A stretch of 6,592 nucleotides of DNA from a virus (lineage: Duplodnaviria; Heunggongvirae; Uroviricota; Caudoviricetes): IMG/VR virus record IMGVR_UViG_2778261619_000004, positions 1-6,592 of that record; one strand, written 5' to 3'. The position numbers and the translations under genes were made by a program. Below, in pieces: positions 1 to 6,592 of the stretch. Every line of letters starts with the position of its first letter. Position 1 is the stretch's first letter. Under the pieces are notes generated by a model. That model had not been told where the DNA came from and searched no databases. It was given only the letters and a program-made list of their open reading frames with translations.

Positions 1-1283
1 GTTACCTGAACCACAAAACGGCGATGACGTCCCGCCTGCACATCCACTGTCGCCACAAGGAAATTAACGCCATCCGGCACACTGCGGGAAGGAACTGGCT
101 CTGCCCGCTGCTCAAGCAATTCACTTTTTCGTTGCTCCATGCTGGCGCGGGGAAGATAAGGTAATCCCCAGTCGGTATTGATAACCGTCTTGAGTGTCTC
201 TTCACTTCCGGTTGTCTCGTATTCCTGTTCTGCAGTAAGCAGTTTGTAAACGAGTTGCGAGAGTGTCTGATAAGCAGCTGCCGGACCCTCCATCCAGAAT
301 GACGCAATACGTGAACGCCGGGGATCACCATAACGACTGCCATCTGCATTGATGGATTCACCATCCCGTAGCCAGACCCCACGTCCGTTCAGCTCGCGTT
401 TTTGTTCAGGCAAAATCCGTCCTGAACAGGAAGGACACTGAATATAAGCCGCCTCACTTGCCAGCACAGGATCGGCAATATCACGGAAACCAGCAACCAC
501 ATCGCCGCAGGGCTGAAAATACTCACCACAGTGTGGACATGGCCAGTACCAGCGACGGCGATCGCCACGGTTATAGAGCGACAGGATCCCCGTGGTTGGT
601 GGAGCCTCATGCGGTGAAGTCCGTCGCCATTTCACATCCTTCACATCCCTGCCGGGGGAACTCTCCACAAGCGTCATACCACTGGACATAAATGTGGTGG
701 TACGTTTTGAGGCAAGAGAGAAGGCATCCCCCTCGCCATCAATATCTTCCGGAAAACGGTCATAATCCGTCAGCGCCACGCATTTATAATCTGATGAGGA
801 CATGATATTGACTGACGGCCAGCCGATTTTCAGGTAGTTGCCAGCAAGGAATGTTCTGTCATAAACGTTGTTGTCATTTTTGTTCGGACTCAGGCGACTG
901 ACCACTTCCGGGCTGACGCGAAACGTTCTGGCGAGTCGTTTTTTGGAGTGTTCGCGGGCTTTTTCCTCCGTCATCTGAATGATCAGCATATCCGCAGGAT
1001 CGCAAATCACGTTGTAAATCACCCAGCCGTCAATCAGGCCGATAGTCTTGCCGGTTCGTGCCGGGCCAACAAATATCACTGCGTCGTATTCACGCGAGGC
1101 CAGGCAGTTCATCGGCTCAATAACATACGGTGCCACCAGCGGATCCCACGGGACTGAGTTCCCTGCCCCCATGGGCACCCGCATATACTGAGCAACGGCA
1201 TCAGCAACCCGCATTCGTCTCGGTGCGCGAAGGATATAACCTGAATCGGTTCGTGCTGCCTTTGCGGTTTCCTGATTCAGCAT
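1..1283 (-). CDS. Terminase large subunit, lambda gpA family; N-terminal 427 codons, C-terminus lies beyond window start
   Basis: Hand translation of the minus strand from ATG at 1283-1281 is open through position 3 (absent from the ORF track because no stop lies in-window). Begins MLNQETAKAARTDSGYILRAP; has Walker A-like VGPARTGKT and a Cys cluster WPCPHCGEYFQPCGD...IQCPSCSG that parallels lambda gpA (ACPHCGEEQYLKFGD...LCEHNAC, from memory). SD AGGAGGAG lies 5 nt upstream; start overlaps the upstream stop as TAATG. Confidence 0.88.
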   Translation of the reverse strand, partial: MLNQETAKAARTDSGYILRAPRRMRVADAVAQYMRVPMGAGNSVPWDPLVAPYVIEPMNCLASREYDAVIFVGPARTGKTIGLIDGWVIYNVICDPADMLIIQMTEEKAREHSKKRLARTFRVSPEVVSRLSPNKNDNNVYDRTFLAGNYLKIGWPSVNIMSSSDYKCVALTDYDRFPEDIDGEGDAFSLASKRTTTFMSSGMTLVESSPGRDVKDVKWRRTSPHEAPPTTGILSLYNRGDRRRWYWPCPHCGEYFQPCGDVVAGFRDIADPVLASEAAYIQCPSCSGRILPEQKRELNGRGVWLRDGESINADGSRYGDPRRSRIASFWMEGPAAAYQTLSQLVYKLLTAEQEYETTGSEETLKTVINTDWGLPYLPRASMEQRKSELLEQRAEPVPSRSVPDGVNFLVATVDVQAGRHRRFVVQV

Positions 1284-1774
1284 TACTCCTCCTGCTGTAA
1301 TTCCTCCTCATCATCCGCACCTGCTTCGGTCACCCGCAGGGCTATCTGATCGCGCAGATCATCAATAATGGACTGAACACGGCTCACAGCGGCAGGCTGC
1401 AGACCACAGTCACGTTCCAGAATATCCGGTAATGTCTCCAGCACCTGCACGACCGCTTTTGCCCAGATGGCAAACTCCCGTCTGACATCACTGGCCGGAA
1501 TGAGTTGTGCCGTTTCCTGTTCGAACTTAAGACGCTCACGTTCAGACTGATACCAGGCTTTGCGTTCATGTGGATCCATTTCGCCCTCAGCAACCGGCGG
1601 TGGTAACCCCATAAATTCAGTCAGAATATCGGTCAACCGGTATAGCTTGAGTTTGTCATGTCCACCAGCGGGACGAATGTTTTTCAGTCTTGCCACGACA
1701 GTCTGGCGGTGCAGACCAGATAAAGCCGCCAGTTGATTAATATTCAGCACCAGGTTTTTCAATTCATGATCCAT
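1283..1774 (-). CDS. Terminase small subunit, Nu1-like (N-terminal helix-turn-helix DNA-binding domain)
   Basis: 163-aa ORF directly upstream of and overlapping the large terminase, with strong SD GGAGGA. N-terminus LNINQLAALSGLHRQTVVARLKNIRPAGGHDKLKLY follows the lambda Nu1 pattern (HTH, then GGG, then LY; lambda VNKKQLADIFGASIRTIQNW...GGGKGNEVLY). Acidic C-terminal tail. Sits about 175 bp downstream of the predicted cosN, as in lambda. Confidence 0.8.
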   Translation of the reverse strand: MDHELKNLVLNINQLAALSGLHRQTVVARLKNIRPAGGHDKLKLYRLTDILTEFMGLPPPVAEGEMDPHERKAWYQSERERLKFEQETAQLIPASDVRREFAIWAKAVVQVLETLPDILERDCGLQPAAVSRVQSIIDDLRDQIALRVTEAGADDEEELQQEE

Positions 1775-1805
1775 ATTTCCTCCGGAGAGCTTTAAACATG
1801 CATCG

Positions 1806-1866
1806 TGCGAACAACTTTAAGAAAACGCGTTCGATGTCGAACAAAAAACACTCAATTCGACATACA
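1806..1866 (-). promoter_or_regulatory. Putative cosB: small-terminase binding repeats and A-tracts between cosN and the terminase genes
   Basis: Inverted repeat ATGTCGAA (1834-1841) / TTCGACAT (1857-1864); near-palindrome GTTCGA-TG-TCGAAC (1829-1842); CGAACAA at 1808-1814 and 1838-1844; A-tracts at 1843-1849 and 1865-1874. The position matches lambda cosB (R sites plus IHF bend). Confidence 0.35.
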
Positions 1867-1948
1867 AAAAACAAACAACCATTAATAATCAATAAGATGT
1901 AAAGATGATGGTGGCCGATAAAAATGCAAAAACTAGCCTTTTTCCGCG

Positions 1949-1960
1949 ACGCTCCCGCCC
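1949..1960 (-). other. cosN, cohesive-end nicking site of the cos packaging signal; predicted 12-nt end GGGCGGGAGCGT (phage orientation)
   Basis: Reverse complement of 1931-1990 reads CGGGTCCTCCCGGTGGGGTGGCCTGCCACG-GGGCGGGAGCGT-CGCGGAAAAAGG. This is collinear with the lambda cos region as I recall it (ACGGGTCCTTTCCGGTGATCCGACAGGTTACG-GGGCGGCGACCT-CGCGGGTTTTCGC): 16 of 21 matches across the core, plus the conserved CGGGTCCT and CCGGTG blocks on the cosQ side. It lies between the lysis cassette and Nu1-like gene, as expected. Confidence 0.6.
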
Positions 1961-2160
1961 CGTGGCAGGCCACCCCACCGGGAGGACCCGTCAGCCTGGC
2001 AGCCATGAACGAGCGTCTGATACAGAACACAGAAATAAATCAGGCATCCACTGACGTCACACAGACGGTGCATTGCGTCGACAGGAGTAATGGCGTAAGC
2101 TGAACTCTTGGCTCTCTTGTGCCACCGGCGAATCTTCAGCGGATTATCCTTGGCCGGTTT

Positions 2161-2625
2161 TTATCTGAGGCATTGCTCACGAATGTATAGCTGTGCCCCT
2201 TCCAGTTGTTTTTGCATTATTATCAGCCGCTCTCTGAGGGTGAAATAATCCCGTTCAGCGGTGTCTGCCAGTCGGGGGGCGGCTGCATTACCCACGCCGG
2301 TGGCGGCGGTGGCTTCACGTCCGGTCTGACAGACTGCTCTGATGCGCAACCGACGACGACCAGCGGCAATATCATCACGCAGAGCATCATTTTCAGCTTT
2401 TGCATCAGCTAACTCCCTTGAGTATTTTTCATCCAGTGCAGCAACATCACGCTGGCGCTGCTGCATGTCAGTAATGGTGGCGTTCGCCTGGCTGAGTTTT
2501 TCCTTCGCTTTATCGCGCTGGTCTTTGTAGGAGATGGCGTTATCACGGTAATGATTAACAGCCAATGACAGGCAGACGATGATGCAGATAACCAGAGCGG
2601 AGATAATCGCGGTGACTCTGCTCAT
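2161..2625 (-). CDS. Rz: Rz i-spanin (inner-membrane spanin subunit)
   Basis: 154 aa, [34 protein letters not shown]..., near-identical over most of its length to lambda Rz as recalled ([34 protein letters not shown]...). N-terminal TM helix then coiled-coil periplasmic domain. Start overlaps the R stop (ATGA). Confidence 0.93.
2223..2405 (-). CDS. Rz1: Rz1 o-spanin lipoprotein, embedded out of frame within Rz
   Basis: 60 aa, [24 protein letters not shown]...[28 protein letters not shown], with lipobox LVVVGC and proline-rich mature region. Near-identical to lambda Rz1 ([20 protein letters not shown]...[29 protein letters not shown], from memory). Confidence 0.9.
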
Positions 2626-3098
2626 ACCTCAATCTCTCTGACCGTTCCGCCTGCTTCTTTGAATTTTGCAATCAGGCTGTCAACTTTATGCTCGAACTGA
2701 CCATAACCAGCGCCCGGTAGTGAAGCCCAGATATTGCTGCAACGGTCAATTGCCTGACGAATATCACCGCGATCAATCATCGGTAAAGCGCCACGCTCTT
2801 TAATCTGCTGCAGTGCAACAGCGTCCTGGCTTTTCGGAGAGAAGTCTTTCAGGCCAAGCTGCTTGCGGTAGGCATCCCACCAACGGGAAAGAAGCTGGTA
2901 ACGTCCAGCTGCGGTTGATTTAAGTTGCGGGTTTAGCGTAACAAGTTTGCGAGGATGATCGGAGTAATCTGTGAACAGCTCACCACCTACAATAACGTCG
3001 TAGCCGTGATTGCGGGTTGGCTGTCGCCCGTTATCCGTTCCTTCTGACCACGCCAACATATCGAGGAAAGCTTTACGCTGGGAATTTAGTACCTGCAT
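2622..3098 (-). CDS. R: Endolysin, lambda R-type lytic transglycosylase
   Basis: 158 aa, [57 protein letters not shown]..., roughly 95% identical by eye to lambda R including the catalytic-Glu motif AWSEGT. SD AAGGAG 6 nt upstream; only 3 nt after the holin stop. Confidence 0.95.
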
Positions 3099-3101
3099 AA
3101 A

Positions 3102-3428
3102 TTACTCCTTAGAGCCACCAAACTTATTACCGATTACTCTCATTGCAGCCCCACGAATAGCATCGACACCGATCAGCCCCACCCCACCACCAATGGCAAC
3201 AGAAAGCGATTTAGGCCATCCGACATACTCAAGAGCGGATGCAAAAGTCAGCGTCAGAGCGCCACAGAGTAGAATTTCGAGTGTTTTTCGCTTCCAGCCA
3301 CCACCACCGCCAAAATAGGCAATGCGCAAACCAGCCATAACAATCGACATAATCACTGCGCCCAGCGGTGTGTCTCCACGCCACCAGCTCTGGACCAACT
3401 CCAGCCAAGTATTTGGGTTATGAGGCAT
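3102..3428 (-). CDS. Holin, class I (three TM), distant lambda S relative
   Basis: 108 aa directly upstream of R. Three hydrophobic segments (GAVIMSIVMAGLRIAYF, TLEILLCGALTLTFASAL, SLSVAIGGGVGLIGVDAI) and a charged C-terminal tail. The block LGAVIMSIVMAGLRIAYFGGGGG aligns with lambda S IGAILAFAMAYLRGRYNGG. An in-frame TAA two codons upstream of the ATG rules out a longer N-terminus; no Met-Lys-Met dual-start motif. Confidence 0.8.
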   Translation of the reverse strand: MPHNPNTWLELVQSWWRGDTPLGAVIMSIVMAGLRIAYFGGGGGWKRKTLEILLCGALTLTFASALEYVGWPKSLSVAIGGGVGLIGVDAIRGAAMRVIGNKFGGSKE

Positions 3429-3580
3429 TTGTAGTTATCTCTCACCTCGCCGATACAAGAGGTGCAAATTGAGGGAGTACCACGAACCGCAAATCAGAAG
3501 CGGAAACGTAAAAGAAGCCGAGCCAATGGATAAGAGCTAGATAGACCAAGCCCAACGAATACCAAAGCCCAGAAACGACA

Positions 3581-3602
3581 AAACCCGCTCGACGGCGGGT
3601 TT
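3581..3602. terminator. Candidate intrinsic terminator hairpin (8-bp stem AAACCCGC/GCGGGTTT, 6-nt loop)
   Basis: Arms 3581-3588 and 3595-3602 are perfectly complementary. On the minus strand the stem is followed by UGUCGUUUCU (a tR'-like terminator ahead of the holin); on the plus strand only the UUU of the stem is followed by AAGCUG. The A/U-flanked stem could work in either direction. Confidence 0.4.
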
Positions 3603-3718
3603 AAGCTGTGTGGCGAAGTAACCACTCTTAACAGAGTACTGTATTTTTTGCGTACGCATTAGTATTTTTTGAAGTATTATCAACACCAATTGTTCAAAAC
3701 CATTAAAAGGATGTTGTT

Positions 3719-4753
3719 ATGACTGCATCAGCGACCCCCACTAATATCACTCATAAGTTTATTGTTCACATTATGAACAAGGAACAACAGGGGTTAGCCA
3801 CCATTATTCCTTGTCCTTCAGAAAAACCTGTTCAGCAAGCATCAAAAGACCTCTCTAACGCACTTACTGAAAGGTACTCTGGGAGAGCAGGTAAAGGATA
3901 TGGGAAATTTGAAGATGACCGCGATAGTTACCCTATGGGTAATATCGTTGATGATTATTTCGTAAATAAAACACATAGTTTTTATGATACTAGTATCCGA
4001 ATGATCAATCATTTAAAAGCCAGAGCCGATGATGAATCAATGTCTACTGGTGGTTATGTAATAATTGCCCATAATGAGGTAAATGGAAATCATTATTTGA
4101 TGGTTGCAATCCTAACATCAGCAGTTGGCTCTTCAGTCCACGATTTTGAAATTCAAGAAAGTGAATATCTAGACATTGCTAAACTTCGAGTAGCGGGACG
4201 AATTGACTTAACTGGGCGCCAGAATGGCAAAGAGAGATATATTAGCTTTCTAAAGGGGCAAAATTCAGTAGCAGGTTATTTCAAAAAGTTTTTAGGTTGC
4301 AACGATATTCTAATTGCCAAACAAGAAACAACAAAATTACGGAATGCACTTTTAGAATTTGCTACTGAAAGAGGTTTTGAACCAGAGGCACGTGAAGAGT
4401 TCCTAAATAAGGCTCATGAAAAATTAAAAAATTTAAATCGTTCTGGTGAAACTTTCGACACTCAAATTTTTGCAAACGAGATATGGCCAACTGCTCCTGA
4501 GTTGTTAGTTGAAAAGTTAACCAATGACGATCTGGAGTTCTCTGATGGGTTCGTGCCTGATGGCAACGTTATACGTGGGCTTGTTAGTTTCAAAGGAAAG
4601 TCCAAACATTGGTCTCTGAAATTCGAGCGTGCGGCCTTGCATGATGGCAGCGTTCTTTATGATTCAGAAAACGATAAATTGATACTTACCGAGATTCCGG
4701 ATACGCTAAGATCAGAGATTTTATCAGAATTAGGTGAAGAGGATGAGCAGTAA
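3719..4753 (+). CDS. NdpA/YejK-like nucleoid-associated protein homolog (NA37 family), divergent, prophage-encoded
   Basis: 344-aa ORF with ATG start and AAAAGG SD. Collinear similarity to E. coli YejK recalled from memory: [24 protein letters not shown] vs [41 protein letters not shown] vs [27 protein letters not shown] vs TRYLTFLKGR; KFLGC vs DFLGA; [13 protein letters not shown] vs TIKGTPPNLRDQL. AT-rich codon usage unlike the flanking phage genes. Confidence 0.8.
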   Translation: [344 protein letters not shown]

Positions 4754-5921
4754 CAATCAGAGAACCTTCAAAGACTTAGTGACTATTTACAAGGCCGCTA
4801 CATTTGCAGGTACCCTATCTGAAGCATCACTCATTCTTTCAAACGAGGAGCTCTGTGACATCATCAACGATATCACAGAGAATCCCCATGATTTTGGCAT
4901 CACCCTTGAATCTGGCAACATTGAGTTAGGCCAAACTATAACCTTACATATAACCCCCCCCAAATTACGATTGGGGCAGCTACATTTCTCTTTTAATGAG
5001 TATTTAAAAAATCCTAAAAATAGGATAAAGGAAGCCAGTAACTTCTTTATAATCGAACTTAATTATCACAACAGGGATAAAAAGTCGCCTGCTATTATAT
5101 CCAAGTACAGAGATGTTTTGAGCTTAATTACTTTATTCAAAGATTGTTCTGCTTATTTAGATGAAACAAATTTTGAATTGGTATTCGTCGAATCCAACGT
5201 ACTAAAAATTCCAGTAAATTATTCTAGCGATGATCTTATGAATGTTAATGGAGATCTGATTCATAATTTGATCGCAAACTTTGCAGAAGATACGCATAAA
5301 GATCAAAAACTTACTATTTTAGCAAGTAGTATAAAATCATCATGTGAATCTAAAACTAAAGAAACCTCTTTTTCCTTCATGTTAAGGGATTTAGGACAAC
5401 TTTATGAAAGTTATCAAAAAGGATACAAAGTATTCGTTTCTGGTTTTTCTTACGAGAAAATACTGGATCAGTTACGAGTAGCCAAAATAGAAGAGATGGG
5501 GAAAATACATAAAGTATTCAGTGACATACAAAATCAGATATTAGGTATCCCCGTCGCAACAATTATCGTTGCGACTCAAATGAAGCAGGCTAATGGTTGG
5601 GATAGTCAAGCATTAATAAACACAGCTGTAGTGTTGGGTGCATTGTTCTTCACTATTATGATTCTATTTGTTCTATTTAATCAATGGCAAACTTTAACAG
5701 CAATAAATGATGAGTTAAATCATAAAAAACAACAAGCAGAATATAACTTCAAGGCTATTTACGAAGATATAAAGGATACATTTGATAGTTTAACCACAAG
5801 ATTGCTTGTTCAGAAAATTGTTTTTGCCTCATTAGGAATTATAGTTTTATGTGGCTTATATCTTACATTTAGATTCTACTTTTTACTTACGCCTTATGCT
5901 ATTACATATTTATTTAGCTGA
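4743..5921 (+). CDS. Membrane protein of unknown function: about 265-aa soluble N-terminal domain plus 2-3 C-terminal TM helices; candidate effector partner of the NA37 protein
   Basis: The ORF track gives 4734-5921 from GTG. An ATG at 4743, 5 nt after AGGTGA, is the more likely start; it overlaps the upstream gene stop (TAA 4751-4753) by 11 nt. Hydrophobic segments INTAVVLGALFFTIMILFVLF and IVFASLGIIVLCGLYLTF (plus FYFLLTPYAITYLF) are separated by a charged loop. I recognise no catalytic motif. Very AT-rich. Confidence 0.8.
   Translation: MSSNNQRTFKDLVTIYKAATFAGTLSEASLILSNEELCDIINDITENPHDFGITLESGNIELGQTITLHITPPKLRLGQLHFSFNEYLKNPKNRIKEASNFFIIELNYHNRDKKSPAIISKYRDVLSLITLFKDCSAYLDETNFELVFVESNVLKIPVNYSSDDLMNVNGDLIHNLIANFAEDTHKDQKLTILASSIKSSCESKTKETSFSFMLRDLGQLYESYQKGYKVFVSGFSYEKILDQLRVAKIEEMGKIHKVFSDIQNQILGIPVATIIVATQMKQANGWDSQALINTAVVLGALFFTIMILFVLFNQWQTLTAINDELNHKKQQAEYNFKAIYEDIKDTFDSLTTRLLVQKIVFASLGIIVLCGLYLTFRFYFLLTPYAITYLFS
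4954..4961 (+). repeat. Homopolymeric C8 tract inside the membrane-protein CDS (codons Thr-Pro-Pro)
   Basis: Eight consecutive C at 4954-4961 in an otherwise AT-rich gene. By hand translation, a +1 or -1 slip gives a stop within about 20 codons. Confidence 0.9.
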
Positions 5922-5938
5922 CGGCCAATATGGCCGTC
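5920..5938. terminator. Stem-loop between the convergent stops of the cassette and Q (GACGGCC-AATAT-GGCCGTC); possible terminator or insertion-junction remnant
   Basis: Perfect 7-bp GC-rich inverted repeat with 5-nt loop. It starts inside the cassette stop codon (TGA 5919-5921) and ends 8 nt before the Q stop (5946-5948). Plus-strand tail UAAUAAAUU is only moderately U-rich; minus-strand tail is A-rich. Confidence 0.35.
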
Positions 5939-5945
5939 TAATAAA

Positions 5946-6293
5946 TTACCCATGTATTATATATATAACTGCATCAATAAATCCCAATGCAGCTTGCAAC
6001 TTTTTTCTTATAGTCCCATCAGAGCATTTTCTCTTCTTCGCAATAGTGCGTAATGAGATACCGATAACAAAGTGAGCAATTATCAGCTCATACTCTTCCG
6101 GCTTATATTTACGCAACCTAGCCACACAACTATCTATCATGATGCCTTCATCATCATCACACTGGAGACGTGACTTTTTACCGTGTGGTAAAAGTCCCTT
6201 GAAACCAGCCGCTATCGGCTGCCAGTCCACACCACTATTTTCTGCTGCAGCCCATGCTCCCCAGCGGTCCAATACTTCATACATATCACGCAT
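5946..6293 (-). CDS. Late-gene antitermination protein Q (QuuD / phage 82-like small Q family)
   Basis: 115 aa from ATG at 6293-6291 (the ORF track starts one codon earlier at TTG). MRDMYEVLDRWGAWAAAENSGVDWQPIAAGFKGL...RLQCDDDEG resembles E. coli DLP12 QuuD as recalled (MRDIQMVLERWGAWAAN...SSIAAGFKGL...RPQCCDDD). SD GGAG upstream. Positioned upstream of the lysis cassette as in lambdoid phages. Confidence 0.75.
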   Translation of the reverse strand: MRDMYEVLDRWGAWAAAENSGVDWQPIAAGFKGLLPHGKKSRLQCDDDEGIMIDSCVARLRKYKPEEYELIIAHFVIGISLRTIAKKRKCSDGTIRKKLQAALGFIDAVIYIIHG

Positions 6294-6310
6294 CAACTTT
6301 CTCCACCAAA

Positions 6311-6592
6311 TCAGGCCAGCACGCCAATTGCCAGCGCACGATCAATAAAACGAAATATCAGCTCCAACTGGGAGCCATACTTCTCTTCAAATGCCACGGT
6401 ATCCGCATGCAGCTCGTCGTGATGCTTTCTGCACAAAGGCAACACAAAGAGGTCATGCGCTTTTGTACCCATTCCCCCCTGACCGTGGCCTATCAGGTGG
6501 TGGGGATCATCAGCAGGCTTTCCACAACATGCACACGGCTGTGTCTTAACCCAGCGCGTGTACTTTTCATTAACCCAGCGGCGACGTTTTGG
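6311..6592 (-). CDS. Cys/His-rich nin-region protein, possibly YbcO-like putative nuclease; C-terminal 93 codons, N-terminus outside window
   Basis: Minus-strand frame open from the window edge to TGA at 6313-6311, 17 bp upstream of Q. Translation ...QPCACCGKPADDPHHLIGHGQGGMGTKAHDLFVLPLCRKHHDELH... has a CxxC...HH...C..HH..H cluster. The block HLIGHGQGGMGTKAHDL...CRKHHDEL loosely parallels my recollection of DLP12 YbcO (HIRLTGLCGTGTKPPDL...CSACHDEI). Confidence 0.5.
   Translation of the reverse strand, partial: PKRRRWVNEKYTRWVKTQPCACCGKPADDPHHLIGHGQGGMGTKAHDLFVLPLCRKHHDELHADTVAFEEKYGSQLELIFRFIDRALAIGVLA

Follow-up and report, generated by a model that had tools for sequence, protein, structure and literature searches.

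A candidate abortive-infection cassette of a YejK-like nucleoid-associated protein and a membrane protein, remotely related to DS-1, between Q and the holin gene of a lambdoid Escherichia coli prophage

Two-gene systems that join a YejK-like nucleoid-associated protein (NAP) to a partner with membrane helices have been described among the anti-phage defences of Escherichia coli, first DS-1, validated under the working identifier D390 in the DefensePredictor study (Science 2026, PMC13092281), and second type II PANGU, one of the NAP-based two-gene systems given that name in a preprint of April 2026 (bioRxiv 10.64898/2026.04.06.716658). Here they are compared with a cassette of two genes, called gene A and gene B, located in a 6,592-nucleotide (nt) stretch of IMG/VR record IMGVR_UViG_2778261619_000004, hereafter the window, whose positions serve as coordinates throughout (Table 1). 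The window spans the part of a lambdoid E. coli prophage devoted to late regulation and lysis, with the phage genes on the minus strand, and the two open reading frames (ORFs) of the cassette lie on the plus strand, between the antiterminator gene Q and the holin gene S. On the strength of the comparisons reported below, the cassette is probably accessory cargo of the prophage (a moron) encoding a two-component abortive-infection system similar to type II PANGU and DS-1. The pair would thus be a new, divergent member of the defence class that unites a NAP with a membrane effector, its function being assigned by homology.

DS-1 consists of a gene for a 391-amino-acid (aa) YejK-like protein (WP_000355468.1) followed by one for a 404-aa protein (WP_000150292.1; PMC13092281), at positions 220602-221777 and 221780-222994, respectively (PMC13092281 Table S8), and it reduced plating by 7.6 logs for Bas1, 2.7 logs for Bas26 and 1.7 logs for Bas3 and T3 (PMC13092281 Table S7). 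Type II PANGU is bicistronic and comprises a YejK-like NAP and an effector with an N-terminal NAP-binding domain and a C-terminal transmembrane (TM) domain. Its E. coli example, PANGU-Ecu, protected against T4 when both genes were present, neither being toxic alone, and showed abortive-infection kinetics, with infected cultures arresting growth; the trigger was phage-induced degradation of host DNA, and T4 escaped through mutations in denA (EndoII). The NAP Pag2A bound the acidic N-terminal domain of the effector Pag2B with a dissociation constant (KD) of 19 nM and, fused to green fluorescent protein (Pag2A-GFP), left the nucleoid upon infection, while the mode of action of Pag2B was stated as unknown (10.64898/2026.04.06.716658).

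Both products of the window cassette are remote homologues of the DS-1 components, as judged from profile and pairwise comparisons. Against the DS-1 equivalog models of NCBIfam release 20 (NF053868 and NF053869), gene A scored 56.2 bits with DS1_1_antiphage (E 2.8e-15) and gene B 70.2 bits with DS1_2_antiphage (E 1.6e-19). As these scores lie far below the respective equivalog cutoffs of 330 and 315, the pair should not be called DS-1, and the relationship is one of homology, not of equivalence. In BLASTP, gene A shared 25% identity with DS-1A over 197 residues (E 3e-10), and an hhalign comparison of the gene-B family profile with DS-1B gave 94% probability (E 1e-7) for an alignment of 279 columns that takes in the conserved central helix together with the membrane region. 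The two loci are alike in gene order and protein sizes, the NAP gene coming first and the gene for a partner of about 400 aa with C-terminal membrane helices second; the partners also share the same succession of elements, namely a cytoplasmic N-terminal part, a hydrophobic helix with a conserved "(I/L)PxA" motif, a TM helix, a long amphipathic helix and a final TM helix. They differ widely in sequence, the NAPs being about 25% identical over half of the protein and the partners about 20%, and in an extra N-terminal Cys-rich segment of about 40 residues (CxxC...CxxC) that DS-1A carries and gene A does not; moreover, DS-1 has been validated experimentally, whereas the window pair is known from sequence alone.

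The organization of the cassette also agrees with that of type II PANGU, in which the NAP gene lies less than 40 bp from its neighbour: genes A and B overlap by 11 nt (4743-4753, counted from the ATG start), and the corresponding arrangement was found in 19/19 loci of the gene-B family. Hydropathy and an AlphaFold2 model likewise indicate for gene B the soluble N-terminal part and C-terminal TM region of a type II effector. Type I PANGU (Pag1A with the GRel toxSAS protein Pag1B) shares with the window pair a NAP sensor and its proposed release from the degraded nucleoid; it differs in having a soluble alarmone synthetase as effector and no membrane protein, and gene B showed no similarity to toxSAS in the Pfam and NCBIfam searches. 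The original prediction for this locus, made from the sequence without database searches, had suggested that a DNA-binding sensor was paired with a membrane effector, possibly as an abortive-infection module. The pairing is supported by the remote homology of both proteins to DS-1 and by the type II PANGU architecture, and the abortive-infection idea at the level of the class, type II PANGU being reported as abortive. Its claim of an undescribed system has instead been overtaken, since the class was described in 2026, a class-level match exists in the databases, and gene A and the gene-B cluster had already been flagged. In the genome-wide DefensePredictor table, WP_000127202.1 (gene A) has a log-odds of 9.14 and a 392-aa protein with cluster representative WP_053264141.1 a log-odds of 11.97, each as a predicted novel defence gene, and neither accession was found in the table of cloned units (PMC13092281).

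Gene A, matching at 100% DNA identity the RefSeq locus annotated as WP_000127202.1 ("nucleoid-associated protein"), belongs to the NA37 family: it scored 232.9 bits against Pfam PF04245 (gathering cutoff 24.6; E 8e-69) over profile positions 1-324 of 325, that is, over the full profile. Together with a match to the solved structure of E. coli YejK (NdpA; 9BE2, E 1.7e-19), this bears out the NdpA/YejK-like character proposed for the first gene; a further match was to phrog_3767 (E 4e-80). With E. coli YejK it has in common the Pfam family and a fold alignable over residues 93-334. Profile scores nevertheless mark it clearly as a paralogue distinct from the housekeeping YejK, because its 164.8 bits against the NCBIfam YejK equivalog NF001557 fall below the 341-bit cutoff, and unlike YejK it is prophage-encoded and always accompanied by a membrane partner. 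We also observed a C-terminal acidic tail, ELGEEDEQ, at residues ~336-344 (window 4724-4750); most clades of the gene-A family have such tails, whereas E. coli YejK shows none in its aligned part, and the tail could serve in autoinhibition or in contacting the partner.

Gene B corresponds to RefSeq WP_053264141.1, annotated "hypothetical protein", and matches phrog_5023 (E 6e-80) and no Pfam family above threshold. Strong hydrophobic segments at residues ~291-313 and ~357-381, with a weaker one at 266-280, predict a cytoplasmic domain of ~265 aa followed by two or three C-terminal TM helices, and the AlphaFold2 model (mean predicted local distance difference test score, pLDDT, of 81, and ~90 over the residue 1-215 domain) supports the same predicted topology, in line with the C-terminal membrane anchor expected for the second gene. 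The cytoplasmic part, made of the alpha/beta domain and the helices up to residue ~265, is mildly acidic (net charge -6, as against -1 to -16 across the gene-B family and -8 in DS-1B), and the N-terminal domain is a candidate docking site for the gene A protein. The membrane region begins with helix 266-280 (ILGIPVATIIVATQM), weakly hydrophobic and highly conserved in the family alignment, and continues with a TM helix (~291-313), an amphipathic helix (~314-356) and a second TM helix (~357-381); in the model, long helices cover residues 217-279, 288-335 and 340-382. A Foldseek search of the model against the PDB returned no match at E<=0.001, and the family profile none among the sequences of solved structures. 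The layout of an alpha/beta head, a long stalk helix and C-terminal TM helices may recall, in outline only, CorA-like channels and ClyA-like pore formers. Clustered at 50% identity, the family counts 1107 representatives at E<=1e-3 and 301 at E<=1e-30, with lengths almost always of 380-420 aa.

The members of the pair occur together with strict constancy. When the gene-B family profile was searched against one genome per species, 19 full-length gene-B loci with 31-71% identity were retrieved from Alpha-, Beta- and Gammaproteobacteria, each with a NA37 gene immediately upstream on the same strand that ends at, or just inside, the gene-B start. Across loci, the identity of gene A to its window counterpart rises and falls with that of gene B (r = 0.90, n = 17); the pairing in these loci is obligate, and the partners co-evolve. 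The co-occurrence of homologs in other contexts, proposed at the outset as a check on the prediction, was therefore confirmed, the NA37 partner accompanying gene B in lambdoid and Mu-like prophages and in chromosomal islets. The genes are also translationally coupled, as had been suggested from their overlap: a Shine-Dalgarno-like AGGTGA stands 5 nt before the ATG of gene B, and the gene pairs of the homologous loci likewise abut or overlap, from a 2-nt gap to a 20-nt overlap. Gene B could also start at an in-frame GTG (4734), RefSeq having annotated the ATG at 4743 (392 aa). Comparison with the Salmonella and Rosenbergiella orthologues gave nonsynonymous divergence (dN) values of 0.10-0.21, with synonymous divergence (dS) at saturation in three of four comparisons and 4.0 in the remaining one, and because of these values both genes are under purifying selection. 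Pseudogene decay was considered and rejected on the same figures, both ORFs being intact.

The distribution of the cassette is that of an accessory element. It was found in 16 of the 5426 complete E. coli genomes, where it is 98.8-100% identical, and its relatives are encoded in 7 of 50,697 deposited phage records, in none of which they are annotated. In the same slot between Q and the holin, a Salmonella prophage has a pair of 79-86% identity, with a holin and an endolysin of other families; in Mu-like prophages of Klebsiella and Jeongeupia the pair lies directly upstream of the holin or endolysin gene, on the strand of the lysis genes; in Gallionella it occupies a chromosomal islet flanked by toxin-antitoxin genes. 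The chromosome of Jeongeupia wiesaeckerbachi has two copies of the pair (loci L012 and L013) with equal identity to the window proteins, and at least one copy (L026, overlapping L013) was seen within a Mu-like prophage, directly upstream of the endolysin gene and on the late-gene strand; insertion of a transposable prophage at two sites would account for the second copy.

The site occupied in the window is itself a cargo hotspot. The leader on the holin side (3430 to ~3670) has matches in 2478 of the 5426 complete E. coli genomes, and in other phages different cargo lies on the opposite strand between this leader and Q. In another E. coli prophage, whose holin leader is nearly identical, this place is taken by a single opposite-strand gene for a KAP-family P-loop NTPase (PF07693, E 9e-71; positions 4297-5628 of locus L002), the qsr'-type substitution of phage 434B puts the nmpC porin gene into the slot, and in an Stx2a phage stx2 is found further downstream within the Q-S interval. 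Two unrelated two-gene cassettes were also observed on the opposite strand of the Q-S slot, namely genes 50/49 of Shigella phage SfII (L032 2785-4399) and gp27/gp26 of Stx2a_WGPS2 (L030 3630-5193), each with one protein of 340-343 aa and one of 179-194 aa. Neither had a significant Pfam or NCBIfam match; the smaller proteins gave sub-threshold matches only, those of gp26 being to membrane-protein families. As further NA37 systems both were rejected, not being NA37, and they are candidates for other accessory systems. The original prediction of a moron hotspot between Q and S is thus upheld, and its picture of an AT-rich island on the strand opposite to Q and the lysis genes proved accurate too: guanine-plus-cytosine (GC) content is 35.5% over 3671-5945 (38.5% in gene A and 33.0% in gene B), against 51.5% over 1-3670 and 47% over 5946-6592.

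If the cassette works as its described relatives do, the gene A protein would ride on chromosomal DNA as a YejK-type dimer, as its fold family suggests, and the gene B protein would be held in the inner membrane by its two or three C-terminal helices, presenting its mildly acidic domain to the cytoplasm. Both would be expressed in the lysogen, and translational coupling of the overlapping genes would fix their ratio. A superinfecting lytic phage that degrades the chromosome would free the gene A protein, as reported for Pag1A and Pag2A with T4 EndoII, and the freed protein may then dock on the N-terminal domain of gene B in the manner reported for Pag2A and Pag2B. Docking might shift the helical membrane region to a permeabilising or depolarising state and halt growth before the phage cycle is completed, a step that is speculative even for Pag2B. 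A similar layout is found in RexAB of phage lambda, a prophage two-component abortive-infection system expressed in the lysogen, in which a sensor in the cytoplasm, responding to a DNA-related signal, switches on a partner in the inner membrane that in turn dissipates the membrane potential. RexAB lies in the lambda immunity region, whereas the window cassette lies in the Q-S interval, and the two are likened by layout only, no kinship of sequence or fold having been seen, nor any search aimed at one made.

The company kept by the pair allows a different explanation, namely that it serves the lytic cycle of the phage that carries it, by coupling nucleoid and membrane in the timing of lysis or by tethering or remodelling host DNA. 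It adjoins lysis genes in three unrelated phage backbones, standing between Q and the holin in the lambdoid phages and before the holin or endolysin, on the matching strand, in the Mu-like ones. Among 97 immediate neighbours at 18 loci the commonest families were holins (5), SLT lysins (3), Q, DUF968 and Dam methylases, while HipA_C, a DNA methylase and a restriction-endonuclease domain occurred once each; furthermore, both proteins fall within PHROG phage families. A role in the carrier's own cycle is nonetheless hard to reconcile with the lambdoid arrangement, in which the pair lies on the strand opposite to the late operon, and with its dispensability, the leader being far more widespread than the pair and unrelated cargo taking its place. 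The pair also occurs outside prophages, as in Gallionella beside toxin-antitoxin genes, and DS-1, a remote homologue, is by itself enough to protect cells once cloned. We therefore hold this explanation to be quite unlikely.

Superinfection exclusion, also put forward in the original prediction, would have the membrane protein block DNA entry or another early step, with the NAP as regulator or co-factor and survival of the cell. A membrane protein in the position of a prophage moron suits such a role, and sequence does not separate exclusion from abortive infection. Strict co-evolving pairing with a protein of a DNA-clamp family fits a sensor and effector better than an entry block, however, and type II PANGU arrests infected cultures and is bypassed by mutants in a phage nuclease, not in entry functions; exclusion is on these grounds decidedly unlikely. 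Very improbable is a third proposal, that gene A is a NAP regulator of a mobile element, tuning prophage expression or maintenance, and gene B a non-immune accessory membrane partner: gene A is clearly not the housekeeping YejK but a paralogue, and NA37 paralogues on mobile elements are known regulators, such as NdpA2 in PAPI-1 transfer in Pseudomonas (PMC8565334), yet the proposal leaves unexplained both the membrane partner obligatory at all 19 loci and the matches of the two proteins to the DS-1 models.

The assignment of the cassette to abortive infection of the type II PANGU or DS-1 kind is itself opposed by several observations. Neither protein matched a component model of PADLOC-DB v2.0.0 (2023) at E<=1, and the transfer of function from DS-1 spans a large distance (56 vs 330 and 70 vs 315 bits). 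Basic pore residues important for DNA binding in E. coli YejK are R173, R176, K177, R276, R280 and K284; most of these mapped Arg and Lys positions are not retained by gene A, which keeps by position only the equivalent of R280, while other clades of its family also retain R at positions 173 and 276, with lysines nearby. DNA binding by the gene A protein is a prediction. The N-terminal part of gene B, with its net charge of -6, is milder than the "high density of acidic residues" of Pag2B, and shows the DNA-mimic character described for that protein only faintly. PANGU candidates were selected through linkage to known defence genes, whereas the window pair lies in a lysis-region hotspot of a prophage, and the co-orientation of the Mu-like pairs with the lysis genes directly downstream would fit a phage-serving function as well. 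Finally, membership of type II PANGU is inferred from architecture, and the window pair may be PANGU-Ecu itself, a member of its cluster or a sister type. In favour of defence speaks the accessory distribution, with the cassette in so few E. coli genomes, a KAP NTPase among the alternative cargo of the hotspot, and further occurrences in Mu-like prophages and in an islet shared with toxin-antitoxin genes.

As regards the limits of the cargo, the island had been described as bounded by two hairpins. Both exist and are stable, but the left-hand hairpin (3581-3602) is part of the conserved phage leader upstream of the holin and not of the cargo, because the leader around it has matches in 2478 E. 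coli genomes and the cassette is in only 16. It was called by the terminator scan and is invariant in five phages with different cargo. Alignment with the KAP-NTPase locus and with the cassettes of other genera places the left breakpoint of the cargo at ~3637-3680. The right-hand hairpin (5920-5938) overlaps the stop codon of gene B and lies in the 24 nt that separate this gene from the convergently oriented Q; it lacks a U-tract on both strands and was not called by the terminator scan, and it could end or stabilise a transcript.

An element of ~90 nt at 3580-3680 is kept in phages with different cargo (KAP NTPase, nmpC, other cassettes and the NAP pair), and also whatever the genes on its other side, be they the holin or a succession of gp28, methylase, tRNAs and stx2. 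It contains the palindrome GCGTACGC and the left-hand hairpin, which reads from 3602 to 3581 and has a run rich in T after it on the late strand. Rfam gave no match anywhere in the window, this element included. The identification of window 3580-3656 with the region upstream of lambda bor was rejected, the element being absent from the reference lambda stretch read around bor; short matches to 3580-3656 in lambda-like isolates lie in qsr'-type substitutions such as that of 434B. The element may be a late-operon leader, with a promoter-proximal terminator overridden by Q, or a regulatory module of the cargo, and if it is the late leader, late transcripts might originate on the holin side without ever traversing the cassette. 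We also noted a perfect TATAAT on the minus strand (5961 to 5956), in the last codons of Q and ~18 nt upstream of the right-hand hairpin read from 5938 to 5920. This is a possible alternative late promoter next to Q, from which late transcripts would run antisense through genes A and B. Neither candidate has a good -35 element, so that a late promoter on either side of the cassette, and late transcription opposing it, are both possible. A scan for sigma-70 promoters found 7 matches vs 10.2 expected from shuffling and no confident promoter for the cassette or the late operon; upstream of gene A, TATTAT is a -10-like hexamer and AAGGA the ribosome-binding site.

Among the flanking genes (Table 1), Q is distantly related to Q21, with a weak match to structures 6P18 and 6JNX (E 0.003). 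At the other end of the window, positions 1-1283 contain no complete ORF of any length in the ORF list; a large terminase gene is expected by synteny after the DUF1441 gene on the minus strand, and its frame would leave the window at the left end, hence its absence from the list.

Table 1. Features of the cassette and of the surrounding prophage region, in window positions.
Feature	Position	Strand	Description
Gene A	3719..4753	+	344 aa; YejK-like nucleoid-associated protein (NA37 family) with acidic C-terminal tail; proposed sensor
Gene B	4743..5921	+	392-aa membrane protein; proposed effector
Gene B N-terminal alpha/beta domain	4743..5387	+	Residues 1-215; AlphaFold2 model
Gene B membrane region	5538..5885	+	Residues 266-381; hydropathy, alignment conservation and model
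Translational-coupling junction	4732..4753	+	AGGTGA 4732-4737, gene B ATG 4743, gene A TAA 4751-4753
Gene A upstream region	3637..3718	+	Palindrome GCGTACGC 3650-3657, TATTAT 3675-3680, AAGGA 3708-3712
Terminator-like hairpin	3581..3602	-	8 bp, ~-13 kcal/mol, then TTTTGTCGTTT on late strand
Hairpin GACGGCC-AATAT-GGCCGTC	5920..5938	strand-neutral	7-8 bp, -15 to -16 kcal/mol
Antiterminator Q	5946..6296	-	116 aa; PF06530, E 1.2e-44; right edge of hotspot
Lambda-family holin S	3102..3428	-	PF05106, E 5.7e-25, RefSeq annotation; first gene of lysis cassette, left edge of hotspot
Endolysin	2622..3098	-	Next after holin
Rz and Rz1	2161-2625 and 2223-2405	-	After endolysin
DUF1441 protein gene	1283-1774	-	
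DUF968 gene, 3' end	6311-6472	-	

The comparison gives a provisional function to proteins so far labelled "hypothetical protein" and "nucleoid-associated protein", and adds to a described class without establishing a new kind of system. A bolder view, which we consider unlikely though worth stating, is that the module is a switch from nucleoid integrity to the membrane, placed at the entrance of the lysis cassette in lambdoid and Mu-like phages, with an effector that may be a new alpha-helical membrane-permeabilising protein, and that it would both kill cells attacked by a competitor and act in the lytic growth of its carrier. The concept of a nucleoid protein that reports chromosome integrity as a means of defence first appeared in 2026, and its membrane-effector branch, to which type II PANGU and DS-1 belong, has no known effector mechanism. 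The subfamily to which the window pair belongs is large and coherent, with 1107 representative clusters, members in Alpha-, Beta- and Gammaproteobacteria and the NA37 pairing in all examined loci, and in temperate phages it occupies a clearly delimited slot for cargo. The E. coli prophage cassette raises the question of what keeps a prophage from setting off the system when it is itself induced, and would offer a compact natural example in which to address the generality of this sensing and the action of its membrane partner.

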